DNA of 64,000 nt from Chloroherpetonaceae bacterium. GTDB lineage: Bacteria > Bacteroidota > Chlorobiia > Chlorobiales > Thermochlorobacteraceae. The notes below the pieces were generated by a model. That model was given only the letters and a program-made list of their open reading frames with translations, did no database searches and had not been told where the DNA came from. Made by a program: the position numbers and the translations under genes. This document shows, piece after piece, positions 1,513 to 61,614 of this stretch; the first letter of the stretch is position 1; the number at the start of each line of letters is the position of its first letter. The DNA lies in assembly GCA_046719715.1 (NCBI GenBank), contig JBDNCJ010000002.1:17646-81645 (forward strand). The letters run 5' to 3'.

Positions 1513-3621
1513 TTACGGGTTTTTGCCGTCCGCGCTCGATTCGGTTTTATCGGGCTGTTTGTATTTGGGGTCAAAGAGCTTGTTGTTCGCTAAATTCACA
1601 TCGGGCAGTTTTTTATCGGGATCTAATTCCACGCCGACAATTTTCTTTTCTGACCACACGGGCGCAATAAACTCATTACCTCGAAGCCAGATTTCAACGG
1701 GCAGTTTGCGTCGTTCCGTAGAGCCGTCTTCGTAGGTGATTTCCATTTCAACGGGCATGACCATCTCTTTGCGATTGACGAGGAAAATGCGGTTGTAGTA
1801 TTGGTCAAGCGAATCGAGCGTGTGGACGGAATCGACGGATTGGTCAAGTTGCGACGTCGTGTAGAACCAGCCGCGCCAAAACCACGCCAAGTCTTCGCCC
1901 GCTGCGTCGTCCATCGTTCTGAAAAAATCTTCCGGCGAAGGGTGTTTGTATTTCCAACGCCGAATGTATTCTTTGAACGCCGCATCGAAACGCTCTTCAC
2001 CCAAGACGACTTCGCGCAAGGCAACGAGTGCCGCCGCCGTTTTCGCATAAGCATTTTGACCGAGATTGCGAATCGCGTGTGGGTGCGTCATCAACGGTTG
2101 ATGCTCTTCGGAGCGCATATACGGCACAATGTCGCGCGCTTCGCCGCGTCGCGCCTTGCGTTCAGGATACTTTTCTTTTTCGCCGTAGTAGCAGATAAAC
2201 GAGTTCAACCCTTCATCGAGCCACGCATATCGTCGCTCATTATTCTGCACAATCATCGGAAACCACGTGTGCCCGACTTCGTGAAGCGTAACGGCAAAGA
2301 GCCGAAAATCGTTATACCGCTCCCGACAAAAAATCATCATCGGATATTCCATTCCGCCCGGCACCGAGCCATTGACGTTAATCATCGTGTTGTAGGGATA
2401 GGGAAACCATTTCTCGGAAAACTCTTTGAGCGAGAATCGAACATATTGCGTGGATTCTTTCCACATTTGTTGCCCTTCGACGGGGTAGAGCGATTGTGCC
2501 AAAATGCCGTTCCACTGCGCGGCGTCCCAAATGAAGGCGGCTGATGAGGCAAAGGCAAAATCGCGCACGTTGTCGGCTTTGTAGTGCCAGACAAGTTCGC
2601 CCGTTTGTTTCGGGCGTGTCCACGACGCGCCAACTTCATCGCGTCCGATAATCATGACTGTTTCATCGCTTTTAGCGGCTTTGGCTAATCGCTCGCGAAG
2701 CGTTGATGTTAAAACTTCATTCGGATTTTGAAGCGTGCCCGTCGCCAAACAAATGTGATTGGCTGGAACCGTGAGTTTCACATCAAACGAACCGTATTCG
2801 GTGTAGAACTCGCCTGCACCAAGATATTGGTCGGTGTTCCACCCCGAAAGGTCGTCATAAACGCACATTCTTGGATACCATTGCGCAATTTGATATACCC
2901 AGCCTTGCTTGCACTCTTCGCGTCCCATGCGACCTGTAAAGGGAATCGCAAACGACCACTCCATCTCGAGTTGCACCACGCCCCCATTTGGCACAAGTGG
3001 TTCGGGCAAGTCAATGCGCATCATCGTATCGTTGATTTTGAACTTGGCTTTCGATTTTGTCTTCTTTTGTGGCGCGCGTTTTCCTTTTTTGACGGGTTGC
3101 GTTTGCATTGTTATGACTTCGACATCAGTGATGTCCATTCCGCCATCAAATTCAGAAGAGCGGAAGAGCGACGGCTCGGTTGGGTCGTCGGCTTCTTTGA
3201 TAAGACGCGCACGCATTTTCGGATTGGACAGATTTTGGTCGAGCTGAACCCACACATAGTAAAGCGTATCGGGCGAGTTGTTGGTGTAGGTGATCGTTTC
3301 CATTCCAGACAGCACATGTTCAAGGGTGTCAATTTTTGCCGAAATGACATAGTCGGCGCGATTTTGCCAATACTGATGCGACGGCGCGCCCGACCCCGTT
3401 CGATACGGCGAAAGCACCCAATCGAATCGGCGAAACGTGGATTGATTTTCAAATGGCACACGTCTCCCCACAATTTGGATTGGCTCTATGACCGTGTCGG
3501 CAGAAAGTTCAAGGTTCATTTTATCCTCGTCCGTTGCCGTGTTGGACGACGCACATGCGGAAATAACTAAAAAGAAAAGAGCCATGCAGGCTTTTACAAG
3601 CCATTGAGATGTGATTTTCAT
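1513..3621 (-). CDS. M1 family zinc aminopeptidase, lipoprotein
   Basis: GGMEY exopeptidase motif, HEVGH...E (LDEG) zinc motif, lipobox ISA-C. Confidence 0.9.
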   Translation of the reverse strand: MKITSQWLVKACMALFFLVISACASSNTATDEDKMNLELSADTVIEPIQIVGRRVPFENQSTFRRFDWVLSPYRTGSGAPSHQYWQNRADYVISAKIDTLEHVLSGMETITYTNNSPDTLYYVWVQLDQNLSNPKMRARLIKEADDPTEPSLFRSSEFDGGMDITDVEVITMQTQPVKKGKRAPQKKTKSKAKFKINDTMMRIDLPEPLVPNGGVVQLEMEWSFAIPFTGRMGREECKQGWVYQIAQWYPRMCVYDDLSGWNTDQYLGAGEFYTEYGSFDVKLTVPANHICLATGTLQNPNEVLTSTLRERLAKAAKSDETVMIIGRDEVGASWTRPKQTGELVWHYKADNVRDFAFASSAAFIWDAAQWNGILAQSLYPVEGQQMWKESTQYVRFSLKEFSEKWFPYPYNTMINVNGSVPGGMEYPMMIFCRERYNDFRLFAVTLHEVGHTWFPMIVQNNERRYAWLDEGLNSFICYYGEKEKYPERKARRGEARDIVPYMRSEEHQPLMTHPHAIRNLGQNAYAKTAAALVALREVVLGEERFDAAFKEYIRRWKYKHPSPEDFFRTMDDAAGEDLAWFWRGWFYTTSQLDQSVDSVHTLDSLDQYYNRIFLVNRKEMVMPVEMEITYEDGSTERRKLPVEIWLRGNEFIAPVWSEKKIVGVELDPDKKLPDVNLANNKLFDPKYKQPDKTESSADGKNP

Positions 3622-3719
3622 GTAAGTGAATTTTGGAACACAAGAGATTGTTTTAATGAAACCAAAGTTATTGAAATTCGTGTGCTTTTTGTTAAGTTCG
3701 CTTCATCAAAATTGATGTT

Positions 3720-4094
3720 ATGCAAACACGCTTGCTCCATATTTTTCCGATTCTTTTTGCATTCGTGCTTTACACGATTCCGCTTTGCCAATGCGCGGAA
3801 ATGATAAAGGCAAAAGCGGCACCTTCGTGCTGTTCGGCATCAAGCCTAACGGAGTCAGGTGCGCATAAGGCTTGCACCGATGCCACAGAATGCTGCGCTG
3901 ACGGCATCAACGCGGAAAAAATGAAAACTGAAAAATCGTTTGAATCCGCACAAGTTTCGCTTTCTTCTCCTGCGCTGGTTTCAGTTATTGAGTTTCCTTC
4001 GCTTTTTGCTTCTACCCAATCGATTTCCTTTAACAACGCTTTCTCGGTACACTCTCCACCGACACAGGCTTTCTTGCAAGTGTTTTTGATTTAG
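3720..4094 (+). CDS. Cys-rich exported/leader protein with C-terminal SPP motif (DUF2946/HYC_CC_PP-like)
   Basis: 124 aa; N-terminal hydrophobic segment, CQC, CC and CC motifs, ends HSPPTQAFLQVFLI; first gene of a metal-related cluster. Confidence 0.65.
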   Translation: MQTRLLHIFPILFAFVLYTIPLCQCAEMIKAKAAPSCCSASSLTESGAHKACTDATECCADGINAEKMKTEKSFESAQVSLSSPALVSVIEFPSLFASTQSISFNNAFSVHSPPTQAFLQVFLI

Positions 4095-4162
4095 GATTTA
4101 CGGTGTTCTTTCGCTTGTCTGCGCATTGATTTTGAACATCGTAATTCTAAACTCAAACACTT
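4078..4162 (+). promoter_or_regulatory. Long mRNA hairpin linking the end of the leader ORF to the initiation region of the next gene
   Basis: AAGTGTTTTTGATTTAGGATTTACGGTGTTC (4078-4108) pairs, with bulges and wobbles, with GAACATCGTAATTCTAAACTCAAACACTT (4134-4162); the next ATG is at 4170. Confidence 0.6.
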
Positions 4163-4169
4163 TTTCATC

Positions 4170-4343
4170 ATGAAATCCATCATTCTTTTTTCGGCGATTT
4201 TATTCACGTTCAGTTTTGCACCGCAAAAGTCGGAAGTTTCCGAAGCCAAATCGTGCTGTGTGAATGCGTGTTGCACCACCTGCACATGCGGCGAGTGCAC
4301 CTCTTGTGCTACTTGCGCCGAGTGCACTTCGTGCTGTGAATAA
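4170..4343 (+). CDS. Small signal-peptide-bearing Cys-rich (metallothionein-like) peptide, absent from the ORF track
   Basis: Manual translation: MKSIILFSAILFTFSFAPQKSEVSEAKSCCVNACCTTCTCGECTSCATCAECTSCCE*; 57 aa, 12 Cys in residues 29-56. Confidence 0.8.
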   Translation: MKSIILFSAILFTFSFAPQKSEVSEAKSCCVNACCTTCTCGECTSCATCAECTSCCE

Positions 4344-4380
4344 TTCATTTTGAATTTTTCGCGCTGAACTTTATTTCTGC

Positions 4381-4412
4381 GAAAGCCTGTTTCCGAAGCG
4401 AAGCAGGCTTTC
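4381..4412 (+). terminator. Intergenic stem-loop (terminator or mRNA-stabilising hairpin)
   Basis: GAAAGCCTGTTTC-CGAAGC-GAAGCAGGCTTTC between the Cys peptide and YHS genes. Confidence 0.55.
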
Positions 4413-4431
4413 ACTTTAACTCAATCCAAAT

Positions 4432-4716
4432 ATGAAAACGCTTTCCATTTTATCATTGATGATTATCGTTTCACTTTCGGCTTGCCAGAAGAGCGAGCCA
4501 AAGCAAGAAGTTGCAAAACCCATGTTTAACGAAGTGTGTCCGATTTCAGGCGAACCCGTAAGCGCGAAGTCAAAAACGGTTGAACACGAGGGTAAAGTGT
4601 ATGGCTTTTGTTGCAACAGTTGCGAGCCGAAGTTCAAAGCCGACCCCGCCAAGTATTCTGCGAAGGTTAGTGCCGACGGCAAAGCCTTTCTCGGCGAAAA
4701 AGAACCTATGCACTAA
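4432..4716 (+). CDS. YHS-domain lipoprotein (metal-binding)
   Basis: Lipobox LSA-C; CPISG...YGFCCNSC...F..DP.KY YHS/TRASH pattern. Confidence 0.85.
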   Translation: MKTLSILSLMIIVSLSACQKSEPKQEVAKPMFNEVCPISGEPVSAKSKTVEHEGKVYGFCCNSCEPKFKADPAKYSAKVSADGKAFLGEKEPMH

Positions 4717-4730
4717 GTTTCCAAAAATAA

Positions 4731-5507
4731 ATGCTGATGATGACTGAACCCTTATCTCAAACGATTACAGAGTTTGCAGTCAGCGGCATGCACTGTCAAG
4801 GGTGTGTTCAATCGGTTGAATCGGCTCTTTCATCAGTGGAAGGGGTTGAATCGGTAAAGGTTTCACTGTTTCCAGCGAAAGCGGTGCTGGTGCTTAAAGG
4901 TGATGTGCCGCTCTCGACACTCAATCGTGCGTTGAAATCCGTCGGCGATTACACGCTTTCGGAGTGGAAAGGCGATGCCGATTCTGCTTTGCCTTTTTCG
5001 CTTCCTGTTGTCAGTGCGCCGATGACTTCATCGGTTGCGCCAACTTCAAACGCCCCCCGTTCAAAAGCGTTTTGGCTTGATGCGCCGAAGTGGAAACGCG
5101 CCTCGTTTAACACGCTCAACTGCTTGATTGGCTGCTCGATTGGCGATTTTGGATTTATCATTTATGCGCAAAGTGTCGGCTTGGCGTGGTCAATGTGGGC
5201 GATTATGGGCGTCGCGATTCTGTGCGGACTGACGACTTCCGTCATGCTTGAAACCGTGATTCTCAAAGTGCGAGAAGGTTTTTCTTGGTCGCTTGCCTTG
5301 CAGACGGCTTTCTCAATGAGTTTCCTCTCGATGCTTGCGATGGAAATTTCCGAAAATGCAACAGATTACTTGCTCACGGGCGGAACCGTCATGCCGCACG
5401 AGCCTTTCTATTGGATTGCATTGGGAATCGCCCTCATCGCAGGATTCCTTGTGCCGCTTCCCTACAATTATTGGAAACTCAAAAAATTCAACAAGTCTTG
5501 CCACTGA
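4731..5507 (+). CDS. HMA (CopZ-like) domain fused to DUF4396-like membrane domain
   Basis: GMHCQGC heavy-metal-binding motif; TLNCLIGCSIGD and Met-rich TM helices (MSFLSMLAMEI). Confidence 0.85.
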   Translation: MLMMTEPLSQTITEFAVSGMHCQGCVQSVESALSSVEGVESVKVSLFPAKAVLVLKGDVPLSTLNRALKSVGDYTLSEWKGDADSALPFSLPVVSAPMTSSVAPTSNAPRSKAFWLDAPKWKRASFNTLNCLIGCSIGDFGFIIYAQSVGLAWSMWAIMGVAILCGLTTSVMLETVILKVREGFSWSLALQTAFSMSFLSMLAMEISENATDYLLTGGTVMPHEPFYWIALGIALIAGFLVPLPYNYWKLKKFNKSCH

Positions 5508-5733
5508 TGTTCCAGCCATACTTCCGACCGCGCCATTCAGAATGTGAACAGTTATTCTTTTGAATACAGCAAAGCGCATTGATTACTGAAGCCCGATAAT
5601 ACCTTCGCAAAATTTGCGACGCCAAAAGCCGAAACAGCCGATTTCCCCTGTAACGCCTTATTTCATCAGCACTTAAAATTAACGAAAAAAAAATCGAGCG
5701 TCGATTTTCCTTGCATCGCCTAAACGCCCGCCG

Positions 5734-5741
5734 TAACTTTG
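5734..5741 (+). promoter_or_regulatory. Putative -7 promoter element (TAnnTTTG)
   Basis: TAACTTTG with TTG 20 nt upstream, ahead of the 5827 gene. Confidence 0.4.
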
Positions 5742-5826
5742 TTGCGAACTTTGTTCCTTACCAATTTTCAAAAACAAAAGACCCGTTTTCCCACAACGAG
5801 AAAACGCGCCCGAAACAAAATGAAGT

Positions 5827-7245
5827 ATGAAGTATTCTTTTTCCATCACGCGCTTACCTTTCGCACTCTTGCTCCTGCTCACTCTCCACAGTTGCAAAGA
5901 GAACCCGATGAGGTCTATAGAACCTTCGTCTTCAGTTTCCCTCTCTGTTATCTCTGTGTTATCCAACGAGGTATGGCTGAAACTCTCATTCGCGGATAGT
6001 TTAGAGCAACCGCGCGATTTTAGGATTTTGAGAAACGACTCGATTCTCATTCGTGGGTCGCTCTTTAGCAAAGACACGTTGATTGCCGACCGTGCGTTTT
6101 CATCGCCGATATTTCAAGATGGAACGTCGATTCGCCCCAACCGCGACTATACTTTTTCAGCGGTGCGCCTCAATGAACAAACCGGCGTGATTCTCGATAG
6201 CAGCAAAACGCTCCGCACCCGAACCTTGGACACCACCAGCCATGATTATACATGGACAACCACCGCGCTCGGTGAAGGGTCAAGCATCTTGAGAGACGTG
6301 GCGATTGTTAGTGATACATGTGCATACGTTGTTGGACAAATGTTTTTTCGGGATTCCACAGGACAGATAAATCGGGATAAACCCTTTTGTTTCGCAACGT
6401 GGGATGGGCGCCAATGGAGAACATCTCAACTCAGAATATCTGATGGAACTAACACATCAATCGTTCCAGAGTTCAGAGGAATTTTTGCTTTTAGCCCTAC
6501 TGATGTTTGGGTTGCGGCTGTTGGCGTGTGGCGGGTTAATCCGACTACAGGACAAACGCAATCATTTAATGAACTATTGCGATTTAATCCTGCGTTTATC
6601 CTATCTCCTGAACAAAGCATTGAAAAACTTTGGGGAACGGCTCCAAATAATATCTATGGTGTAGGGTTAAAAGGGGCAATCGTTCATTACAACGGTCAGC
6701 GTTGGCAACGCATGGAAAGCGGGACGACGATTGACTTGCGAGATATTTACGGTACACCAGACGGGAAAGAAGTTTGGGCGGTCGGGCATGAAGGCGCGTT
6801 ACCTTTTGGTGTTGTTCTTCGTCTGGAAAATGGACGGTGGGTCAAGAAATTTGATACGTCTTTTCCCAACTATCCCGACGCCGAATTTGCTCAAGCGATT
6901 TGGATGGATAACCATCGCGCCATCTTTTCTAACAGCCGTGCAGTTTGGCAATCACTCGTTTACCCTATCAACAAATTCCCCGGCGCCTATCTCGACGATA
7001 ATAATTTTATAAACAACATCCGCTCGTTGCGCGGCTCTGCGCATAATGATATCACAGCCGTTGGCGACTTTAGTTCGATATGGCATTGGAACGGTTACAA
7101 CTGGCGTTTTTATTCCCAACTTCAACGCGAAAACGATCTTTACCTAGACGTGGCAGTAACCAGCCGTGTTATCGTATCTGTTGGAATACGAAGACTTCCT
7201 TCTTTTAGAAGCGAGGGCTTGATAACCATCGGGCGAAAACCCTAA
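5827..7245 (+). CDS. Hypothetical lipoprotein with beta-propeller-like repeats
   Basis: Lipobox LHS-C-KEN; repeats of the type LWGT..NNIY.VG..G.I.HYNG..W. Confidence 0.75.
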   Translation: MKYSFSITRLPFALLLLLTLHSCKENPMRSIEPSSSVSLSVISVLSNEVWLKLSFADSLEQPRDFRILRNDSILIRGSLFSKDTLIADRAFSSPIFQDGTSIRPNRDYTFSAVRLNEQTGVILDSSKTLRTRTLDTTSHDYTWTTTALGEGSSILRDVAIVSDTCAYVVGQMFFRDSTGQINRDKPFCFATWDGRQWRTSQLRISDGTNTSIVPEFRGIFAFSPTDVWVAAVGVWRVNPTTGQTQSFNELLRFNPAFILSPEQSIEKLWGTAPNNIYGVGLKGAIVHYNGQRWQRMESGTTIDLRDIYGTPDGKEVWAVGHEGALPFGVVLRLENGRWVKKFDTSFPNYPDAEFAQAIWMDNHRAIFSNSRAVWQSLVYPINKFPGAYLDDNNFINNIRSLRGSAHNDITAVGDFSSIWHWNGYNWRFYSQLQRENDLYLDVAVTSRVIVSVGIRRLPSFRSEGLITIGRKP

Positions 7246-7430
7246 CTCAAAAGGAAGTGTGTTTATGACATGAGTAAGAATAAAGAAGCAAGGATTTGGT
7301 TGCCGCCAAACCCTTGCCAAAACACAAACGAAAGCCGTGTGTTTACACAGTCGCATAGTGATGCGAGACGTCATGCTTTTTGTTTGCCGAAAAAGATACC
7401 ATGATTTCTAACAACAAAATGTCTACTCCA

Positions 7431-19905: not shown

Positions 19906-21231
19906 ATGAACTTTAATCCGAATAAATTCACACTTCGCGCACAGGAAGCCGTGCAAACAGCTGCAGAAAAAGCGGCAGGACTTCAACATCAGCAAATCGA
20001 ACCAGAACATTTACTTCTGGCGATGCTCTCCGATAAGAATAATATCGCTTATCAACTTTCAGAAAAGTTAGGGCTTCAAACCGAACAAGTGGTCGCTGTT
20101 TTGGAGCGTCAGCTTGACCGCTTTCCCAAAGTTTCCGGCGCGTCCGTTTCGGGACAATACATGTCGCAAAATCTCGCTAAGGTCTTTGACCTTGCCGCCG
20201 CACAAGCCGAGAAGTTGAAGGACGATTACATCAGTTCGGAACATTTATTGATTGCGATGCTGGAATCGGGACAAACTGTTTCCAAAATTTTGAAAGATGC
20301 CGGCGCAACAACCGACGGCGTGCTCAAAGCCCTCGCCACGATTCGCGGCTCGCAACGAATCACCGATCCTAACGCCGAAGACCGATACAACGCGCTCAAA
20401 AAATACGCCCGCGATTTAAACGACCTCGCCCGCAAAGGCAAGCTCGACCCCGTCATCGGGCGCGACGAAGAAATCCGTCGCGTGCTCCAAATTCTTTCGC
20501 GTCGCACGAAAAATAATCCCGTCTTGATTGGCGAGCCGGGCGTGGGTAAAACCGCCATCGCCGAAGGCATTGCCCAGCGCATCATTGGCGGCGATGTGCC
20601 CGAAAATTTGAAGTCGAAGCAAATTCACGCGCTCGATATCGCCCAACTCGTTGCAGGCACAAAGTTCAGAGGCGAGTTCGAAGAACGCTTAAAAGCCGTT
20701 GTGCGCGAGGTTCAAGATTCCAATGGCGACGTCGTGCTGTTTATCGATGAAATCCATCTGCTCGTCGGCGCAGGCGGCGCGGAAGGTGCGGTCGATGCCG
20801 CCAACATCTTGAAGCCGGCTCTGGCGCGCGGCGAACTCCGCTGTATCGGCGCAACAACCCTCGACGAGTATAGAAAATACATTGAAAAGGACGCCGCGTT
20901 GGAACGCCGATTTCAAACCGTTTTCGTCGCCGAACCCAGCGTTGAAGACACCGTTTCCATTTTGCGCGGCTTGAAAGAGAAATACGAAATTCATCACGGC
21001 GTTAGAATTACCGACGGTGCGATTGTCGCCGCAGCAGAACTTTCCAACCGCTATATCTCCGACCGCTTTTTGCCCGATAAAGCCATTGATTTAATTGATG
21101 AAGCCTCTGCAAAACTGCGTTTGGAAATTGACAGCGTTCCCGAAGCATTGGATAAAATCAATCGTGAAATCCGCCGCCTTGAAATTGAGCGCGAAGCGTT
21201 GAAGCGAGAGTTAGAAGCCGAAAAAGCTTAA
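19906..21231 (+). CDS. clpB: ClpB-like AAA+ protein, N-domain plus first AAA module only (441 aa)
   Basis: Clp N-domain, [13 protein letters not shown], Walker A GEPGVGKT, Walker [22 protein letters not shown]; stops at the start of the middle coiled coil. Confidence 0.85.
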
Positions 21232-21290
21232 ACACCCTGCCTGACACTTTTATCAAAATTGATTAAAGATGATAGGGTTTTTCAAAAACA

Positions 21291-21364
21291 GTCATTCCGA
21301 GCGAAGCGAGGAATCCACTTGACGAACTCGGCGAGGCTCGCTTATGGATTCTTCCCCTTCACTC
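21291..21364. repeat. REP-like palindromic element, copy B (opposite orientation)
   Basis: GTCATTCCGAGCGAAGCGAGGAATCC...GGATTCTTCCCCTTCACT. Confidence 0.75.
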
Positions 21365-21381
21365 TATCTTTATGATGCTCA

Positions 21382-23241
21382 ATGTTTTTTCGCCTTGCCT
21401 TTTTCGCGCTTTTCCTGCCTGCTCTTTGCAAAGCACAAACGCTTTCTAACACCTCGTTTGAACGCTTTCTAAACACTTATTTTTGGAAGGGTAATTATTT
21501 TTCCTCTCATCAACTCGGCGTTTGGACGCTTACGGCGAATAACAATTTTCAATCCACCCTTATCAATCTCAGCGAGCGAGCCTTGCGCGATGAAAACGAG
21601 TTTAGTTTTATTCTCTCCCGACCCTTCTATGCACGGTCTCAACTTCATTTAGAAGGCTCAAATTATTTTCTTTCCGATAATCGCAGTTTATTTCGTAACA
21701 GTGCGGTTTCTAATCGCGTCGCACTCGGCGTTTCTTCACGTCCTTCCGATTGGTCTGTTCTCGAAGCCAACGGCGGATTTAAAGCCGAGCGACAGGTCAA
21801 TCAGTTCAACTCAGGATTCATTTACGCACTTCGGGGAGAGTTACTCGGCTATCAATTTTCTAATTTTGAACTCTCCTCACGCGTGAATCTTTCACAAGAG
21901 TTTTTAGAGCCGCGCAGAAATAAAGATAAAGGCATTATTCTCTCTCTCAATCAAAAATATAATCGTGCGGAACTGCTCCTTTCAGGCGGCATGAGCGAGG
22001 AGCGGCGGGATTATTTTTCAAATGTTCTGGCTTCACAAGAGCCGACGACCGTCGTAGAACGGCGAATAGAGCAAAATTTTTATACGATTGACAGCCTTTC
22101 GTATCGAACTTTTTCCAACCTGACCACGCGGGCAAAAGTAGAACTTCGCAGGCGAGTGATTATTCGCGAAAATAGTCAACAGTTTTCCGACCTAACCAAT
22201 GCCGTTTATGACAATGAAATCGAGCAACTTCGCCTCTTTACCGACGCGGGCGTTATGTTTGAATCCTCATCGTTTCAAACGTTTGCAGGCGTTTTATTTC
22301 AGCAACAATCTGAAAGTTATCGTCCGATAAATGCGTTCTCTGGAAATCCAATCGCGATTACTAGGGAGCAGTTTCGCAATAATTCTTTTCAAGTCGCGAC
22401 GCTTTATTTGTCGTCAATTTGGAGGCACTTCAATGCTGTTGGAGATACCGTGCATTATTTTTTTGTTTCCGCACAGATGCGCGGATTTCGCTACGATACG
22501 CCCGACACCACGAACACCGACGACCGCGACGAAGTCAGTTACGCGCTTACGATTTCCGATAGCCTTCGCCTCAATCGTTATTTTGGATTGCGTCTTGTTG
22601 GTTCGTTTGCAACAACGAACAATGTTTTTATTTCCCGCGAGCGGAGCGCAAATAACACCAAGAACTATATTTTGAGATTTTCGCCGACGACGGTCTGGCG
22701 CGTCCCGAAAAAAATTGAGAGCGTCAATGAATTCGGCGTGCTGGCGAACTATACGGTTTATGATTTTGAAATCGGCTCGCAAACTCGAAGTTTTTCATTC
22801 CGACAATTTTCGTTTTTAGATTCTACGCAATTCTTTTTGAATGAAACCATTACTCTGAAATTTCTCTACGAACAGCGTCTTTACGAGCGCGGCGAGCTTT
22901 TTTGGAACAACTTTGCCGAGCGCCCACTCAGCCGATTCAACGACCGCTCTCTATCGTTTGAAATAGAGGCTCGATATGCGTCGCTTGTGAGTTCTTTTGG
23001 AATTAGAATTTTCGCGCGCAGTCAATCAAATTTTCAAACCCGTCCCAAAACTGATGAGGTTGAAATCATTGAATTACCGCTACCGAACTTGCTTTATATT
23101 GGTCCGACGGCGCGACTTTCATACCGCCCGTCGCAATCCGTTGAATTTGAAACAAGCGGCTGGTATCAGGTTGAACGATTGGGAAGCCAAACCGTTCAAA
23201 TTTTTCCGAACTTTCACCTTTCAGTCAAAGCCCTTTTTTGA
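21382..23241 (+). CDS. Hypothetical outer-membrane beta-barrel protein
   Basis: Signal peptide, aromatic-rich beta-strands, C-terminal Phe. Confidence 0.65.
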   Translation: MFFRLAFFALFLPALCKAQTLSNTSFERFLNTYFWKGNYFSSHQLGVWTLTANNNFQSTLINLSERALRDENEFSFILSRPFYARSQLHLEGSNYFLSDNRSLFRNSAVSNRVALGVSSRPSDWSVLEANGGFKAERQVNQFNSGFIYALRGELLGYQFSNFELSSRVNLSQEFLEPRRNKDKGIILSLNQKYNRAELLLSGGMSEERRDYFSNVLASQEPTTVVERRIEQNFYTIDSLSYRTFSNLTTRAKVELRRRVIIRENSQQFSDLTNAVYDNEIEQLRLFTDAGVMFESSSFQTFAGVLFQQQSESYRPINAFSGNPIAITREQFRNNSFQVATLYLSSIWRHFNAVGDTVHYFFVSAQMRGFRYDTPDTTNTDDRDEVSYALTISDSLRLNRYFGLRLVGSFATTNNVFISRERSANNTKNYILRFSPTTVWRVPKKIESVNEFGVLANYTVYDFEIGSQTRSFSFRQFSFLDSTQFFLNETITLKFLYEQRLYERGELFWNNFAERPLSRFNDRSLSFEIEARYASLVSSFGIRIFARSQSNFQTRPKTDEVEIIELPLPNLLYIGPTARLSYRPSQSVEFETSGWYQVERLGSQTVQIFPNFHLSVKALF

Positions 23242-24131
23242 TGAAAACTGACAAACTTATTTACAGCATTTTTCAGGAGTCGCCAGAAACGGCATTAGCA
23301 TTACTTGGCTACGACGAGGCACTTTCATCGCATTATACCTTCCAATCGATTGAGGTCAAAGAAAAGTCTTATCGAATTGATGGCGTACTTTTGCCTGATT
23401 CGCCCGACCTGCCGGTCATTATTTTGGAAGTTCAATTTCAGGCAGACGACTTTATTTACGAGCGCATTCTTTCGGAGACTCTGATTTTCAGAGCACAGAA
23501 TCGGCAGCTGCCGCAAACGCAAATGGTCGTGATGTTTGCTTCGCGCAGTCTGGATAAAGGTGCAGGCATGTTTGAGCCGCTCGTTTCATCGGGCGCAATT
23601 CGTCCGATTTACCTCAATGAAGTCCTGAACGACGAAATGCGCAATCTTGGACAGATGTTGCTTCAACTGACGGTAAAAAGGTCCAGTCTTTCTGCCGACC
23701 TTGAAATCGCAAAAGCATTCAAACAGCTTTTGGATAAGCCTGAAATGACTCAAACCCGCAGACGCTTTTTCTTGAACCTATTAATTAACTTATTTTTGGA
23801 AAAGCACGAACCTTTAACCTATCAGGAGCTGGAAACGATGATTGAAATGGAAGAAATTTTTGACTTCTCGAACAACCGTCTCGTGCACGACATTGCACGC
23901 CACACGATTGCGCCTGAAATTGCCAAAGAGATGGCAAAGGATATCGCAAGGGATATGGCAAAGGATATCGCAAGGGATATGGCAAAGGATATCGCAAAGG
24001 ATATGGCAATTGCGATTGCACTTGAAAGCAAGTTGGCAGAAATTCCAGCCCTCCGCCGATTTGGTTTAACGAATGAGCAGATTGCAGAGGCTTTGAAACT
24101 TCCTCTCGAAGACGTTCAGCGCGTTCAATGA
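23238..24131 (+). CDS. Rpn family (DUF2887, PD-(D/E)XK) nuclease
   Basis: MKTDKLIY...F.SIEVKE..YRIDG...LEVQFQ.D..IY.R motif; 4-aa repeat tract and HTH-like tail. Confidence 0.85.
   Translation: MMKTDKLIYSIFQESPETALALLGYDEALSSHYTFQSIEVKEKSYRIDGVLLPDSPDLPVIILEVQFQADDFIYERILSETLIFRAQNRQLPQTQMVVMFASRSLDKGAGMFEPLVSSGAIRPIYLNEVLNDEMRNLGQMLLQLTVKRSSLSADLEIAKAFKQLLDKPEMTQTRRRFFLNLLINLFLEKHEPLTYQELETMIEMEEIFDFSNNRLVHDIARHTIAPEIAKEMAKDIARDMAKDIARDMAKDIAKDMAIAIALESKLAEIPALRRFGLTNEQIAEALKLPLEDVQRVQ
23916..24011 (+). repeat. In-frame 12-nt tandem repeat (GATAT(C/G)GCAA(A/G)G), about 8 units
   Basis: Encodes EIAK/EMAK/DIAR/DMAK units in the Rpn C-terminal region. Confidence 0.9.
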
Positions 24132-45626: not shown

Positions 45627-46421
45627 TTATGTTCTTGACACGCTTTGCACATTCGCCAGTGGGAGTTGAAGTTTCTCGGCGATTTGCTCATCGCTTAACC
45701 CCAACTCTCTCAAAATCGGCACTGCTGCAAGTTTGCCTTTTTGCTCACCCTTTTGCTCGCCTTCCAGCCTGCCTTTTTGCTCGCCTTCCAGCCTACCTTC
45801 TGCTTTGCCTTTGGCAAAGACTTCCTTGTAAAACGGCGTGTCCTTCAATAACGCTTCCTCTATTTCCAACATCGCTTTCACCTCCGCTTCGGTTAGGTTC
45901 TTGTAGGCTAAAATGTTCAAGAGTAATTCCATCTGAACCTTGTCGGCTCTCGCCGCAATCTTCCGCGCCAATGCTCCTAGCTCTTTCTTCGGCACAATCA
46001 ACATCTCTAACAAACTCACCGCAACTGACTCCATCGGCGGCAACTCGTCCAAATATATCCGTTTGACTTGCTTCAATGCAAGCAAGTCTCGGTATCCCTC
46101 AAGGTCTTTTTGTTCCGCACTCCGCGAAGAATAAATCACGACAGCGTTCCACTGACGCGTCGGATATTGTTTGAGATAAAGAAAAATTTCAGCGAAGAAT
46201 CGCGCGTAGAATTGTTCGTCGCGTTGAAATTGCGCTTCCACAAAGTATGTCGTGTCGTCGCTGTCAGGAATGAAAAGTCCATCAATGCGAAACGCAACTT
46301 CTTTGAGCTCAACCGATTTGAATGTGTAGTGCAACGCGTCGTCGGGAGTCCTGCCAATGAGCGCGAAAAAACCTTGCGGAAAATGCTGCAAAATCAGGTA
46401 TATCAACTTGTCAGTGTGCAT
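45627..46421 (-). CDS. Rpn family (DUF2887) nuclease, tandem copy C
   Basis: MHTDKLIY, FKSVELKE..FRIDG, FVEAQFQRD..FY.RFFAE, EGEQKG repeats, HTH-like tail. Confidence 0.88.
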   Translation of the reverse strand: MHTDKLIYLILQHFPQGFFALIGRTPDDALHYTFKSVELKEVAFRIDGLFIPDSDDTTYFVEAQFQRDEQFYARFFAEIFLYLKQYPTRQWNAVVIYSSRSAEQKDLEGYRDLLALKQVKRIYLDELPPMESVAVSLLEMLIVPKKELGALARKIAARADKVQMELLLNILAYKNLTEAEVKAMLEIEEALLKDTPFYKEVFAKGKAEGRLEGEQKGRLEGEQKGEQKGKLAAVPILRELGLSDEQIAEKLQLPLANVQSVSRT

Positions 46422-46436
46422 ATCTGCTCGGCAGGC

Positions 46437-47243
46437 TTACCCCTTCGGCACGCTTTGCACATTCGCCAGTGGGAGTTGAAGTTTCTCGGCGATTTGCTCA
46501 TCGCTTAACCCCAACTCTCTCAAAATCGGCACTGCTGCAAGTTTGCCTTTTTGCTCGCCTTCTTGTCTGCCTTTTTGCTCACCTTCTTGTCTGCCTTTTT
46601 GCTCGCCTTCTTGCTTACCTTCTGCTTTGCCTTTGGCAAAGACTTCCTTGTAAAACGGCGTGTCCTTCAATAACGCTTCCTCTATTTCCAACATCGCTTT
46701 CACCTCCGCTTCGGTTAGGTTCTTGTAGGCTAAAATGTTCAAGAGTAATTCCATCTGAACCTTGTCGGCTCTCGCCGCAATCTTCCGCGCCAATGCTCCT
46801 AGCTCTTTCTTCGGCACAATCAACATCTCTAACAAACTCACCGCAACTGACTCCATCGGCGGCAACTCGTCCAAATATATCCGTTTGACTTGCTTCAATG
46901 CAAGCAAGTCTCGGTATCCCTCAAGGTCTTTTTGTTCCGCACTCCGCGAAGAATAAATCACGACAGCGTTCCACTGACGCGTCGGATATTGTTTGAGATA
47001 AAGAAAAATTTCAGCGAAGAATCGCGCGTAGAATTGTTCGTCGCGTTGAAATTGCGCTTCCACAAAGTATGTCGTGTCGTCGCTGTCAGGAATGAAAAGT
47101 CCATCAATGCGAAACGCAACTTCTTTGAGCTCAACCGATTTGAATGTGTAGTGCAACGCGTCGTCGGGAGTCCTGCCAATGAGCGCGAAAAAACCTTGCG
47201 GAAAATGCTGCAAAATCAGGTATATCAACTTGTCAGTGTGCAT
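46437..47243 (-). CDS. Rpn family (DUF2887) nuclease, tandem copy B
   Basis: Body identical in protein sequence to copy C, tail identical to copy A. Confidence 0.88.
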   Translation of the reverse strand: MHTDKLIYLILQHFPQGFFALIGRTPDDALHYTFKSVELKEVAFRIDGLFIPDSDDTTYFVEAQFQRDEQFYARFFAEIFLYLKQYPTRQWNAVVIYSSRSAEQKDLEGYRDLLALKQVKRIYLDELPPMESVAVSLLEMLIVPKKELGALARKIAARADKVQMELLLNILAYKNLTEAEVKAMLEIEEALLKDTPFYKEVFAKGKAEGKQEGEQKGRQEGEQKGRQEGEQKGKLAAVPILRELGLSDEQIAEKLQLPLANVQSVPKG

Positions 47244-47258
47244 ATCTGCTCGGCAGGC

Positions 47259-48053
47259 TTACCCCTTCGGCACGCTTTGCACATTCGCCAGTGGGAGTTG
47301 AAGTTTCTCGGCGATTTGCTCATCGCTTAACCCCAACTCTCTCAAAATCGGCACTGCTGCAAGTTTGCCTTTTTGCTCGCCTTCTTGTCTGCCTTTTTGC
47401 TCACCTTCTTGTCTGCCTTTTTGCTCGCCTTTCTGCTCGCCTTTGGCAAAGACTTCCTTGTAGAACGGCGTATCCTTCAACAGTTCTTCTTCAATCCCTA
47501 ACATCGCTTTTACCTCCGCTTCGGTTATGTTCTTGTAGGCTAAAATGTTCAAGAGTAATTCCATCTGAACCTTGTCGGCTCTCGCCGCAATCTTCCGCGC
47601 CAATGCGCCTACCTCTTCCTTCGGCACAATCAAGATCTGAAACAACGCCACCGCAACGGAATCCGTCGGCGGCAACTCGTCCAAATATATCCGTTTCACT
47701 TGCTCCAATGCAAGAAATTCCCGATAGGCTTCAATATCCCGTTGCTCCACACTTCGCGAGGGATATATCACCACCGCTTTCCATTTGCGCGTCGGATACT
47801 GTTTGAGATAAAGAAAAATTTCAGCAAAAAATCGCGCGTAAAATTGCTCATCGCGTTGAAACTGAACTTCCACGAAGTAAGTGACGTCGTCGGTGTCGGG
47901 AATGAAAAGCCCGTCAATGCGGAAAGAGACATCTTTGAGTTCAACCGATTTGAATTGGTAGCGCACGGCATCGTTGGGATTTCTGCCAATCAGCAAAAAG
48001 AACGCCTGCGGCAAGAGTTGCAGGAGCAGATAAATGAGTTTATCGGTGTGCAT
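47259..48053 (-). CDS. Rpn family (DUF2887) nuclease, tandem copy A
   Basis: Same motifs with a diverged nuclease body. Confidence 0.88.
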   Translation of the reverse strand: MHTDKLIYLLLQLLPQAFFLLIGRNPNDAVRYQFKSVELKDVSFRIDGLFIPDTDDVTYFVEVQFQRDEQFYARFFAEIFLYLKQYPTRKWKAVVIYPSRSVEQRDIEAYREFLALEQVKRIYLDELPPTDSVAVALFQILIVPKEEVGALARKIAARADKVQMELLLNILAYKNITEAEVKAMLGIEEELLKDTPFYKEVFAKGEQKGEQKGRQEGEQKGRQEGEQKGKLAAVPILRELGLSDEQIAEKLQLPLANVQSVPKG

Positions 48054-59075: not shown

Positions 59076-61160
59076 ATGAACACATCCGACCGTTCTCGAA
59101 GGTTGCCACTTTCGCCCGAATCGCAACAAGGCGTCAAGGTGATGGTGGTCACTTCGGTGATGCTTTCCTTCATTTCGTTTTGGCGTGCCGCCGCCATTGT
59201 TTTAAGCGACCTTGCCTCGACGGCTTACTACATCGGCGGCATCACGGAGCGGGCGATTGGCGAAGCGGCGCCGTATTTCATTTTGAGCGTGATGATTTTC
59301 GCATATGCAGTTCGGCTGGTGTATATCGAGTCGTGCTCGATGTTCACGCGGGGCGGGGTGTATCGTGTGGTGCGCAGTTCGCTCGGCGAAAAATTTGCCA
59401 AAGTCGCCGTTTCCGCCCTCATGTTTGATTACATTCTGACAGGTCCGATTAGTTCGGTTTCCGCAGGTCAGTATCTCGTCGGGTTGCTCAACAGTCTTTC
59501 GGCTGAGTTCCAACTCGGCATTACACTTCCCGTCAATTTTTCCGCGCAGGTTATCGCCATTTGCATTGTGCTCTACTTTTGGCGCGTCAATACCAAAGGC
59601 ATGAGCGAATCGTCAGAAAACGCCCTACGCATTATGCAAATCACATCTGTGATGATTGTCATCATGCTGATTTGGTGCGGGATTACGCTCTACGAGCGCG
59701 GGTTTAATCTTCCCAAATTCACGATTCAATTCAATGAAGAATCGCTGGGATTTCTGACGCATTTTCACTTAGGTGAACAACTTTTGTCGGGTGAAGTTTT
59801 AGGCACGATTGGAATTTTGATTGCACTCGGACACTCGATGCTGGCGATGTCGGGCGAAGAGTCGCTGGCGCAAGTCTATCGCGAAATCGAAGCCCCCAAA
59901 CTGCGCAATCTCAAACTGGCGGGCTTCGTCATTTTTGTTGTGAGTATCACTTTTACCGGTGCGTTCTCGTTTCTTGCGGTGATGATTATTCCCGATGAAG
60001 TGCGCATCTCCCAATATGCCGATAATTTGCTTGCAGGATTGGCGATGAATGTCGTCGGTCCTGATGAAGTCAAACTCGGGTTGCAAGCCTTCGTTGTCGT
60101 CGTTGGATTTTTGATTTTGTCGGGCGCGGTGAATACGTCCTTCGTGGGAGCAAACGGCGTGCTCAATCGCGTGGCGGAAGACGGCATTTTGGCGGATTGG
60201 TTTCGCGAACCACACAAGCAGTTCGGAACAACGTATCGAGTGATTAACTTGATTACAGTGTTTCAACTCACTACGATTTTGCTTAGCGGTGGCAATGTCT
60301 ATTTGCTCGGTGAAGCCTACGCCTTTGGCGTGATTTGGAGTTTTGTATTCAACACTTTTTCTATGATGGTTCTTCGCTTCAAAGATAGGCGACCGCGACG
60401 ATTCAAAGTGCCGCTAAACTTTAAGATCAATCGCGTTGAGTTCCCTATCGGCATTTTGCTGGTGCTGATGGTTTTAGTCAGTGTTGCCGTGATTAATCTG
60501 TTTACAAAATCGGTGGCAACGGTTTCAGGGATTTTGTTCACGCTGTTTTTTCTTTTGCTCTTTAGCGTTTCAGAGCGTCTGAATCAACGCGCCAAAGAAG
60601 CCCACAAACGCGCCCGTTCCAAAGACGCACTCTCGCTCGAAGAACTTCAGAAGTTGGAAAAGTTCAATCAAGAAATCGGGCTGAAAATTACGCCCGAAGA
60701 AATCGGATCCGAAAAGCCGAAACGGGTTTTGGTGGCAGTAAAAAATCGAGCGAATCTCGAGCATCTCTTGAACTGCTTGGAAAATATCGATACCGACGAA
60801 GTCGATGTGGTTGTCATGCGCGTGCGTATCTTGAACCCGAAAAACGGGCAACTCTTTGACACCGATATGCTTCGCGATGAACGGCGGCTTTTTACCGACG
60901 TCGTCAATCTCGCCGAAGACATCGGCAAGCCCGTAATTCCATTGATTGTGCCGGGCTACAACGCGTTTTACAGCATCGTCAATACCGCCAAAGAACTCGG
61001 CGCCTCGCACGTGTATATGGGTGAATCCCAAGAGTTCAGCATGGAAACCCAGCTCGAGGAACTCGCGATGATTTGGGGTTATGAACGCAAAGACGAAAAA
61101 GAAAAAATGACTTTTCGCGTTTTCGCCGATGAAAAAAATAAAGTAGAAGTTGAGCTCTAA
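59076..61160 (+). CDS. APC-family permease with cytoplasmic USP-like C-terminal domain
   Basis: About 12 TM segments, GGVY, SGEES, LSGAVNT; soluble C-terminal alpha/beta domain. Confidence 0.85.
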   Translation: MNTSDRSRRLPLSPESQQGVKVMVVTSVMLSFISFWRAAAIVLSDLASTAYYIGGITERAIGEAAPYFILSVMIFAYAVRLVYIESCSMFTRGGVYRVVRSSLGEKFAKVAVSALMFDYILTGPISSVSAGQYLVGLLNSLSAEFQLGITLPVNFSAQVIAICIVLYFWRVNTKGMSESSENALRIMQITSVMIVIMLIWCGITLYERGFNLPKFTIQFNEESLGFLTHFHLGEQLLSGEVLGTIGILIALGHSMLAMSGEESLAQVYREIEAPKLRNLKLAGFVIFVVSITFTGAFSFLAVMIIPDEVRISQYADNLLAGLAMNVVGPDEVKLGLQAFVVVVGFLILSGAVNTSFVGANGVLNRVAEDGILADWFREPHKQFGTTYRVINLITVFQLTTILLSGGNVYLLGEAYAFGVIWSFVFNTFSMMVLRFKDRRPRRFKVPLNFKINRVEFPIGILLVLMVLVSVAVINLFTKSVATVSGILFTLFFLLLFSVSERLNQRAKEAHKRARSKDALSLEELQKLEKFNQEIGLKITPEEIGSEKPKRVLVAVKNRANLEHLLNCLENIDTDEVDVVVMRVRILNPKNGQLFDTDMLRDERRLFTDVVNLAEDIGKPVIPLIVPGYNAFYSIVNTAKELGASHVYMGESQEFSMETQLEELAMIWGYERKDEKEKMTFRVFADEKNKVEVEL

Positions 61161-61173
61161 ACCATTTGCAACG

Positions 61174-61614
61174 ATGACGAACAAATATGCCTCACTTTTG
61201 AGGCAATACGATTTCAAAGTAACGCACGCGCGCGTCAAAGTGCTTGAACAACTTGAACACGCCTCCAAACCTTTGACGGCGCAAGAACTTCACGAGGAAC
61301 TTGCCGATGCGAAAATGGATTTGGCGACGGTCTATCGCTCGCTCAACAAATTCGCTGACGCTGGTTTGATTTCTCGCGTCCAACTTGGCGATGAATTCGA
61401 CCGTTTTGAGCTTGTCAAACATCATCATCATCATATCGTTTGCAATTCGTGTGGCAAAGTTCAAGAAATTGCACTCTGCAACTTGGACATGCTCTCACAA
61501 GCGATTGCCCAAAAGACAGGCTTTCGCAACATCGCTCATCAGGTTGTCTTTCGCGGCGACTGCCAAGAGTGCGCCGCCGACCCAAAATCGTCAAAGTCTG
61601 AATCGAGGTCATGA
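61174..61614 (+). CDS. Fur-family transcriptional regulator
   Basis: [26 protein letters not shown]. Confidence 0.92.

Follow-up and report, generated by a model that had tools for sequence, protein, structure and literature searches.

We analyzed a stretch of 64,000 nucleotides (nt) from a Chloroherpetonaceae bacterium (assembly GCA_046719715.1, contig JBDNCJ010000002.1, positions 17,646-81,645, forward strand; hereafter the window) and describe a cluster of four open reading frames, ORF1 to ORF4, at positions 3720-5507. The four genes are real and under purifying selection. We read them as one operon that would serve the cell envelope in handling a thiophilic metal, with Cu(I) the most likely one, a reading to which we give about an even chance of being right. 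The cluster is a lineage-specific variant of a widespread one, with parts from the known domain families HMA, YHS, DUF4396 and, distantly, HYC_CC_PP. Its new elements are an orphan cysteine-rich peptide (ORF2), a YHS lipoprotein in such company (ORF3) and an RNA hairpin that runs from the stop codon of ORF1 to the start of ORF2. The metal and its direction of transport, the topology and export of the proteins, the contacts between them and the roles of the hairpins are what we infer from these data.

The genome is a Chlorobiales bin, and its public relatives carry the names Chloroherpetonaceae or Thermochlorobacter. A sequence-only reading of the region had reported four co-oriented, closely spaced ORFs with cysteine motifs, and all four were recovered with these motifs on the + strand, with spacers of 75, 88 and 14 nt. 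It had also taken them for a metal-handling cluster of envelope proteins, an interpretation that our comparisons support. The features, in positions of the window, are as follows.

3671-3698, + strand: weak, inferred promoter-like site (TTGAAA, 16 nt, TAAGTT), about 22 nt 5' of the ORF1 ATG
3720-4094, + strand: ORF1, 124 residues, N-terminal anchor or signal, Cys pairs, divergent HYC_CC_PP relative
4080-4160, + strand: hairpin 1, long stem-loop from the end of ORF1 to the start of ORF2, from its fold z score and its recurrence
4170-4343, + strand: ORF2, 57 residues, 12 Cys, orphan, from conservation and selection
4381-4412, + strand: hairpin 2, 13-bp stem with a 6-nt loop in the ORF2-ORF3 spacer
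4432-4716, + strand: ORF3, predicted 94-residue lipoprotein with YHS/TRASH matches (Pfam)
4731-5507, + strand: ORF4, 258 residues, HMA (residues 15-70), linker and DUF4396 (residues 120-255) (Pfam)

Conservation of the cluster and the orphan peptide ORF2

Nine distinct copies of the cluster were compared: that of the window, those of four genomes of the same genus (G001, G002, G004 and G005) and those of the metagenome contigs L095 (the same as L093), L094, L102 and L103. Synteny in relatives, which the sequence-only reading had left to be checked, was found in all of these copies. The order ORF1-ORF2-ORF3-ORF4 is kept in all eight copies found besides that of the window, whose sources are genomes of the same genus and close relatives from metagenomes, and wherever ORF4 is at least 74% identical to that of the window, the other three genes accompany it in this order. 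Ratios of nonsynonymous to synonymous substitution rates (dN/dS), given as medians over 36 pairs for each gene, were 0.25 for ORF1, 0.18 for ORF2 and 0.08 for ORF3. Full-length ORF4 was found in 10 of the 12 genomes of the family, the window's own counted, and in none of the 29 genomes of the other families searched within the order, except for one 35%-identical stretch with four stop codons. The interval between ORF3 and ORF4 holds an extra 74-residue gene in the G002 copy (L004:2195-2419, - strand; the same gene at L014:6778-7002), and in L094 (positions 3043-3500) about 460 nt without a clear gene.

ORF2 carries 12 Cys within the last 29 of its 57 residues (about 21% Cys overall), arranged in CC, CxC and CxxC motifs behind a short, hydrophobic, signal-like N-terminus. 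Its start codon, its stop codon and 10 of the Cys are invariant in the nine copies, and all insertions and deletions are in frame. Among the six frames, dN/dS is lowest for the sense frame (0.18) and next lowest for the antisense frame that shares its wobble positions (0.34), while the other four lie between 0.96 and 1.65. This antisense frame (4091-4414, - strand, 107 residues) overlies ORF2 and is open in nine of nine copies, because its third-codon positions are shared with ORF2. A greedy gene caller chose it over ORF2, and a length-based caller would do likewise. We rejected it as a true gene on account of its higher dN/dS and of the spacers, which vary by lengths that are not multiples of three. 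ORF2 was taken as the gene because of its lowest dN/dS, its fixed start and stop, its in-frame indels and the spacers that break the antisense frame.

Searches for relatives of ORF2 returned little beyond the cluster itself. It matched no Pfam or NCBIfam family, including none of the metallothionein or Csp families. A profile of the nine copies retrieved only the window's own protein from a collection of 5.8 billion proteins. A library of 1.84 billion representatives yielded this protein again and a single further match, judged spurious, to the hydrophobic N-terminus; the ESM Atlas had no hit of 0.8 or more. The sequence-only reading had supposed that ORF2 is a real gene that databases miss, and both halves of this held, the first by selection and the second by the presence of the window's copy alone in the two large collections. 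Among 40 related genomes, ORF2 is present in four of the five other genomes of the genus and in none of the 35 from other genera. No ORF2-like peptide was found near HMA-DUF4396 genes in 80 genome loci, where the Cys-rich ORFs listed outside the same-genus loci resembled chance frames. Judged by these searches, ORF2 is an orphan specific to the window's genus. An origin as a duplicate of the ORF1 N-terminus was hinted at by a tblastn match obtained without composition correction, but was rejected when profiles were compared, with probabilities of 1.7% for ORF1 and 4% for HYC_CC_PP. From the N-terminal Lys and the positive-inside rule, the Cys-rich tail would lie outside the cytoplasm. Composition and the CxC and CxxC motifs fit a metallothionein, with metal binding as a candidate function.

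Domain families of ORF1, ORF3 and ORF4

ORF1 has a hydrophobic N-terminus that ends in PLCQC, Cys residues at positions 23 and 25 (CQC), 37/38 (CC), 52 and 58/59 (CC), and a C-terminus that ends in SPPTQAFLQVFLI. All nine copies keep six Cys, the PT dipeptide of the PP motif and, at the C-terminus, FLQVF-x-I unchanged. No Pfam family matched, and among 17 close relatives in a protein collection none bears a functional name, except for a spurious "carboxypeptidase C" label on two. In a genome scan the HYC_CC_PP model gave ORF1 13.4 bits. Among its orthologs the best reached 17 bits with this model, and three others were not matched. For a profile comparison we assembled 14 bona fide HYC_CC_PP members (56-79 bits) from loci that encode ORF4 relatives. 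Aligned to these with hhalign, the nine ORF1 orthologs reached 93.7% (E 1.9e-7) over 116 of 119 columns. Common to both groups are an N-terminal anchor, a CC pair, a PP motif and a C-terminal Q-x-F-L-I; CC is invariant in the ORF1 copies and PP is found in eight of nine, the motifs being read from our own alignment of HYC_CC_PP members. ORF1 also shares its operon with ORF4 in nine of nine copies. By profile comparison, ORF1 is a divergent relative of the HYC_CC_PP family, homologous end to end.

ORF3 begins with a lipobox (LSAC, Cys18, by our own reading of the sequence), followed by the motifs CPISG and FCCNSC. It exceeds the Pfam cut-off for YHS (PF04945) marginally, with 31.7 against 30.3 bits, and that for TRASH_HVO_1752_C (PF24273) with 28.8 against 27 bits. 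Phenol hydroxylase was matched weakly as well, in its YHS region (E 0.014). The residues C36, C60, C61 and C64 are present in the window's copy, with conservation over the nine copies read from the dN/dS of ORF3. No other YHS match was found in the genome, and among the 80 HMA-DUF4396 genome loci, ORF3-like genes and GDCCVxC genes occurred in same-genus loci only. One study describes a YHS domain as a probable copper sensor (PMC4626032). The prediction that the locus would appear only as hypothetical proteins applies to ORF1 and ORF2, which have no Pfam domains, but not to ORF3 and ORF4, which do.

ORF4 combines an N-terminal HMA domain (PF00403; E 3.9e-13, 50 bits against a cut-off of 24.8) with a complete DUF4396 domain (PF14342; E 2.2e-40, 138.7 bits with a cut-off of 27, all 141 profile positions covered), and it is the only DUF4396 protein of the genome. 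Both Cys of the HMA motif GMHCQGC are invariant in 50 sequences. The best matches of the domain are CopZ models (E 1.3e-12), with MerP more remote (2.5e-5). The models of MerTP (NF033556; 27.2 against 180 bits) and MerP (TIGR02052; 24.7 against 92.55 bits) stayed below their cut-offs and matched in the HMA part only.

An AlphaFold2 model of ORF4 (predicted local distance difference test, pLDDT, 85.6) shows the HMA domain in its standard fold, then a disordered linker and a set of four long helices (residues 118-149, 155-182, 186-216 and 225-253). Invariant in the same 50 sequences are C131, C135 and D139 in helix 1, E174 and E182 in helix 2, M196, M201, M204, E205, N209 and D212 in helix 3, and C257-H258 at the C-terminus. 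Solved structures of copper chaperones and of ATPase domains match the HMA part at Z values of up to 11.8 (root-mean-square deviation 1.4 over 66 residues). A search with the whole model returned few and weak rows for the membrane domain (Z 6.3-6.5), and DUF4396 folded alone (pLDDT 84.8) gave a best VIA Z of 6.7 and a best Foldseek E of 0.39, neither of them exceeding the background of helical bundles. From the charge distribution and the positive-inside rule, ORF4 would sit in the inner membrane, with the HMA domain and the C-terminal Cys-His pair in the cytoplasm.

RNA hairpins, promoter and genomic surroundings

The hairpin that had been proposed behind ORF1 is real. The ORF1-ORF2 spacer of the window folds with a z score of -4.4, and a closed hairpin recurs in nine of nine copies (z at or below -3.7 in eight, -1.4 in L005). 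The 5' arm of hairpin 1 comprises the last codons of ORF1 and its UAG stop, which is base-paired in eight of the nine copies. The 3' arm stops 9 nt short of the ORF2 AUG in the window and 2-10 nt short of it across the copies. Past the stop codon the sequence that forms the stem changes between lineages, and the interior varies in length and sequence. A consistent U-tract was not found. Hairpin 2, in the ORF2-ORF3 spacer, folds with a z score of -4.3 and likewise recurs in nine of nine copies; the same 13 pairs are predicted on the alignment of the nine copies, with only 1 of 117 cells unpaired and one compensatory pair. It has no clear U-tract, and a terminator scan did not flag it. Rfam gave no match within 3500-5900. 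We rejected the idea that the hairpins are repeated elements, as each is single in the genome and other matches had E values above 0.1.

Upstream of ORF1, a TTGAAA-like hexamer followed after 15-17 nt by TAnnTT was seen in seven of eight aligned upstream regions, those inspected by eye, with L005 left out. A consensus promoter scan did not report the TTGAAA-N16-TAAGTT site of the window. Ribosomes that finish ORF1 would probably open hairpin 1, and translation of ORF2 would thereby be coupled to that of ORF1. Hairpin 2 would probably set the level of the ORF1-ORF2 message against that of ORF3-ORF4, by partial termination or by RNA stabilization.

The genes that flank the cluster have no link to metals. 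Upstream, an M1 peptidase gene is encoded on the opposite strand; downstream lie genes for two secreted proteins and an IS4/Tn5-like transposase, followed by glutamate synthase. The interval 5827-11260 holds the two predicted secreted proteins (472 residues, and 803 residues with a reprolysin-like zinc-protease motif) and the transposase. In the relative L003, a partial glutamate-synthase-like ORF directly abuts ORF4, as read by eye from the sequence, and because of this arrangement 5827-11260 of the window looks like an insertion. It had been stated that no pump, multicopper oxidase or metalloregulator lies next to the cluster, and Pfam scans of the neighbors and the rest of the window agree: no P-type ATPase, RND pump, multicopper oxidase or metalloregulator adjoins it. 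The only heavy-metal P1B-ATPase of the genome above the curated cut-off is encoded about 87 kb away on the same contig, and the only CusA/CzcA-type pump above its cut-off on a different contig. A Fur-family regulator gene (61150-61614), about 56 kb from the operon, represents the sole metal-related regulator family seen in the window.

Elsewhere in the window we observed three tandem DUF2887 genes of about 264 codons each (45627-48053) and a fourth copy at 23238-24131. The fourth copy follows a stretch (19906-23241) with the N-terminal half of a ClpB-like protein (Clp_N, AAA and lid; 441 residues) and a 619-residue ORF without a Pfam match; here clpB may be split or interrupted.

Genomic contexts, alternative readings and known systems

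ORF4 has 1844 relatives of similar length, mostly of HMA-DUF4396 architecture, in Chlorobiales bins and Bacteroidota. We analyzed the neighborhoods of HMA-DUF4396 genes at 38 genome loci, mostly from Bacteroidota, with three of Thermochlorobacter-like origin. A bona fide HYC_CC_PP gene lies directly downstream in 14 of the 38, and the gene after it encodes an RND pump in nine loci and a TonB-dependent receptor in five. All four RND pumps tested scored above the cut-off for CusA/CzcA heavy-metal efflux. A gene for an AraC-type regulator of about 190 residues is located upstream of HMA-DUF4396 in half of the loci (19/38), once with a CopZ-like HMA-type N-terminus. A search of the window's genome for an ortholog of this short Bacteroidota regulator gave generic helix-turn-helix matches only (E 5e-5).

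More distant DUF4396 domains were found by tblastn in 26 plasmid records, and nine of these neighborhoods were inspected. Seven hold annotated copper or heavy-metal genes, among them CopA-type P-type ATPases, CueR- or CsoR-type regulators, CopA/CopB, copper-binding proteins, a cupredoxin and a four-helix copper-binding protein; of the remaining two, one has DUF305 and a MerR-family gene only and one has none. In five of eight plasmid proteins scanned, DUF4396 is fused to a multicopper oxidase. These five proteins (L125, L126, L128, L129 and L132, from Bradyrhizobium, Rhodanobacter, Variovorax and Deinococcus plasmids) are 630-714 residues long and encoded in copper-resistance islands. Their hydropathy shows two helices before DUF4396, and a His-rich linker and one further helix after it. 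The charge pattern of ORF4 suggests that DUF4396 ends on the cytoplasmic side, which would place the fused oxidase in the periplasm. The helix-1 Cys is kept throughout DUF4396, and the second Cys is Asp in the fusion proteins, which argues for metal ligation rather than a redox pair.

A sister-genus genome of the same family (G008) has no DUF4396 but has an ORF1-like gene (profile E 1.7e-13). Its row (L145:6247-11167) consists of the ORF1-like gene, a 30-nt gap, a YHS gene, a gene for an HMA-MauE membrane protein and one for a CusA/CzcA pump (1111 bits), with no ORF2. Because of this row, ORF1-type, YHS and HMA-fused membrane genes belong together beyond the genus, in the company of an efflux pump. 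By the same comparison, ORF2 and the hairpins on either side of it were added in the window's genus alone. In this genus no pump or regulator is adjacent. The cluster had been called self-contained, which is doubtful, since relatives of ORF1 and ORF4 elsewhere adjoin CusA/CzcA pumps or TonB-dependent receptors and AraC regulators. Full-text searches of the literature found no experimental work on DUF4396, on HYC_CC_PP or on their joint cluster; they also returned nothing on GDCCVxC, on a periplasmic metallothionein, on AraC with an HMA domain in Bacteroidetes together with copper, or on a YHS-domain lipoprotein together with copper. One article mentions DUF4396 in passing, in a list beside a metal-resistance cluster (PMC7760498).

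The mechanism that we propose starts at ORF4, whose DUF4396 bundle, with its invariant Cys, Asp, Glu and Met in mid-membrane, would pass the metal between cytoplasm and periplasm. Export would be the likelier direction. Three periplasm-facing proteins, the membrane-anchored ORF1, the peptide ORF2 and the lipoprotein ORF3, would bind or relay the metal. A more far-reaching version would make ORF2 the first metallothionein-like peptide described from bacteria that is exported and faces the periplasm. Its loading would follow a route not characterized before, in which DUF4396 is a novel type of Cu(I) membrane translocator that delivers to periplasmic acceptors, the HYC_CC_PP-type and YHS proteins, and the hairpin would tie the synthesis of ORF2 to ORF1. 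We regard this version as doubtful.

Several observations weigh against the proposal of a copper-handling envelope operon. ORF4 occurs without ORF1-ORF3 in other genera of the family (L006-L010; L096-L098, L100 and L101), and therefore does not need them. ORF1 scores only 14.4 bits (E 0.039) with the NCBIfam model of HYC_CC_PP (NF047658), below the 28-bit cut-off, and its P-L-C-Q-C replaces the "HYC" motif without a His. In ORF2 of L094 (L094:2546-2671), an in-frame deletion removes 17 residues between the hydrophobic segment and the Cys-rich part; with them goes the region in which signal peptidase would be expected to cut, so that ORF2 may stay anchored instead of being cleaved and released. 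The signal peptide, lipobox and topology are our own reading of the sequence. Since DUF4396 has no recognizable relative of solved structure, its putative role as a transporter is drawn from conserved residues and context. The 5' arm of hairpin 1 is partly coding, so part of the conservation of this hairpin is protein constraint. The choice of metal must reckon with the fact that HMA and YHS domains and clusters of Cys also bind Hg, Cd, Zn and Ag. The extra gene of the G002 copy matters here too, as a member of the GDCCVxC family (NCBIfam NF041374, E 5e-29), which is associated with mercury or selenoproteins.

The direction of transport could be reversed. The periplasmic Cys-rich proteins would then capture scarce copper or another metal and DUF4396 would import it to the cytoplasmic HMA domain, as MerP and MerT feed NmerA. 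The predicted layout of ORF4 resembles that of MerT, with a Cys pair in helix 1 and with both the Cys(-His) tail and the HMA domain facing the cytoplasm; no efflux pump adjoins the cluster in the window's genus, and the TonB-dependent receptor found in five of the 14 HYC_CC_PP clusters of Bacteroidota, an outer-membrane importer, fits uptake and counts against export. However, in the other nine of these clusters, as in that of the sister genus, the same families stand beside CusA/CzcA efflux pumps. The plasmid neighborhoods are resistance islands that encode CopA-type ATPases and Cu-responsive regulators, and a fused multicopper oxidase that is probably periplasmic suits the export of Cu(I) to be oxidized. 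Because of these pumps, ATPases, regulators and fusions we favor export with periplasmic buffering, and consider uptake unlikely. It is distinctly less probable that the cognate metal is mercury or another thiophilic metal (Cd, Zn or Ag) and that the cluster is a Mer-like or broad soft-metal detoxification module. The HMA domain does match MerP, MerTP and mercuric-reductase N-terminal models weakly, one operon copy carries the GDCCVxC gene, and poly-Cys peptides also bind Hg, Cd and Zn. Yet the best HMA matches are CopZ models and the MerTP match is far below its cut-off (27 against 180 bits). The nine plasmid neighborhoods showed copper genes and no annotated reductase or lyase gene, although the genome was not searched for merA, and a scan of the window's own genome for GDCCVxC gave no match.

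Could ORF4 instead be a redox partner for thiols, one that holds the Cys-rich proteins of the periplasm in a reduced or oxidized state, without any metal translocation? The Cys pair in the first membrane helix of DUF4396 would suit this role, and in the sister genus HMA is fused to a MauE-type domain in place of DUF4396, MauE and DoxX proteins being annotated as redox-associated. In the proteobacterial and Deinococcus proteins, however, the second Cys has become Asp while the Met-rich third helix and His-rich tails are kept, which fits metal ligands, and DUF4396 is fused to metal-binding HMA or to multicopper oxidase; we judge the redox role very improbable. The sequence-only reading had made ORF1 a regulatory leader ORF whose translation, together with the hairpin, would sense metal and attenuate the downstream genes. 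ORF1 is Cys-rich, and the conserved hairpin spans its stop codon and ends just 5' of the ORF2 start. But ORF1 encodes 124 residues, is under purifying selection along its length (dN/dS 0.25) and has full-length homology to a family from other phyla (hhalign 93.7% to HYC_CC_PP). It is the first cistron behind the promoter-like site (as seen by eye), with no room for an upstream attenuator. The ORF1-like gene of the sister genus has neither an ORF2 nor such a spacer (30-nt gap), and the hairpin has no consistent U-tract and no Rfam family. We give this model even less credence than the redox role. What survives of the proposed post-transcriptional control by ORF1 is the coupling to ORF2, plausible through the conserved stop-to-start hairpin, whereas nothing ties the hairpin to metal sensing; the data suggest that hairpin 1 couples ORF2 translation to ORF1 rather than senses metal. 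Least probable of all is that ORF2 is the precursor of a modified ribosomal peptide (lanthipeptide or ranthipeptide) or a bacteriocin. Its conserved N-terminal "leader" and more variable Cys/Ser/Thr-rich core resemble such precursors, but no gene for a modifying enzyme, protease or transporter is found in the cluster in any of the nine copies, no radical SAM gene of the window lies closer than 20 kb, and ORF2 always lies between metal-binding genes.

Among related clusters, those of Bacteroidota (AraC regulator, HMA-DUF4396, HYC_CC_PP and a CusA/CzcA pump or TonB receptor, annotated by family models only) share with the window an HMA-DUF4396 protein, 47-50% identical to ORF4, and an adjoining small anchored protein in which CC, PP and a C-terminal FLI occur. 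They differ from the window's cluster, where the order is reversed with ORF1 first, no AraC, pump or receptor gene is adjacent, ORF1 stays below the family cut-off, and the YHS lipoprotein and ORF2 are added. The sister-genus cluster has the window's order of an ORF1-like gene, a YHS gene and a gene for an HMA-fused membrane protein. Unlike the window it has MauE for DUF4396, a CusA/CzcA pump, no ORF2 and a 30-nt gap in place of the long hairpin spacer. The DUF4396-multicopper oxidase fusions share with ORF4 the helix-1 Cys and a Met/Glu-rich helix 3, but have a C-terminal oxidase instead of an N-terminal HMA domain, three extra membrane helices, Asp as the second Cys and no C-terminal Cys-His.

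Likenesses to characterized systems are by analogy. The E. coli Cus system combines the periplasmic Cu(I)/Ag(I) chaperone CusF with the CusCBA pump. Relatives of the window's cluster similarly encode a small, putatively periplasmic soft-metal binder beside a CusA-type pump, and a relay role is proposed for it. The ligands in the window would be Cys instead of the Met, His and Trp of Cus, the operon has no pump, and the likeness is one of gene arrangement and proposed role. MerT, MerP and MerTP hand Hg(II) to the N-terminal domain of mercuric reductase. In ORF4, the HMA domain, the Cys pair of helix 1 and the cytoplasmic Cys tail suggest a comparable thiol-to-thiol hand-over across the membrane, although its membrane domain is of another family, its HMA domain is predicted to be cytoplasmic and no reductase gene is adjacent. 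Csp1 is an exported copper storage protein, a four-helix bundle of about 120 residues, and the known bacterial metallothioneins (SmtA/BmtA and MymT) are cytoplasmic. ORF2 resembles metallothioneins in its small size, its Cys content and its CC, CxC and CxxC spacing, and like Csp1 it would act outside the cytoplasm; it differs from both in having no family match, and its metal binding is putative.

The locus and the contexts gathered here tie the widespread DUF4396 and HYC_CC_PP families to copper and heavy-metal resistance and suggest testable roles for them. ORF2 shows that a conserved, selected small gene can escape protein databases, and the fold from the ORF1 stop to the ORF2 start is a compact case of possible translational coupling. 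If none of the proposed roles holds, the cluster would be an ordinary accessory metal-homeostasis operon. If ORF2 does bind metal outside the cytoplasm, it would extend the known buffering of copper in the bacterial envelope.

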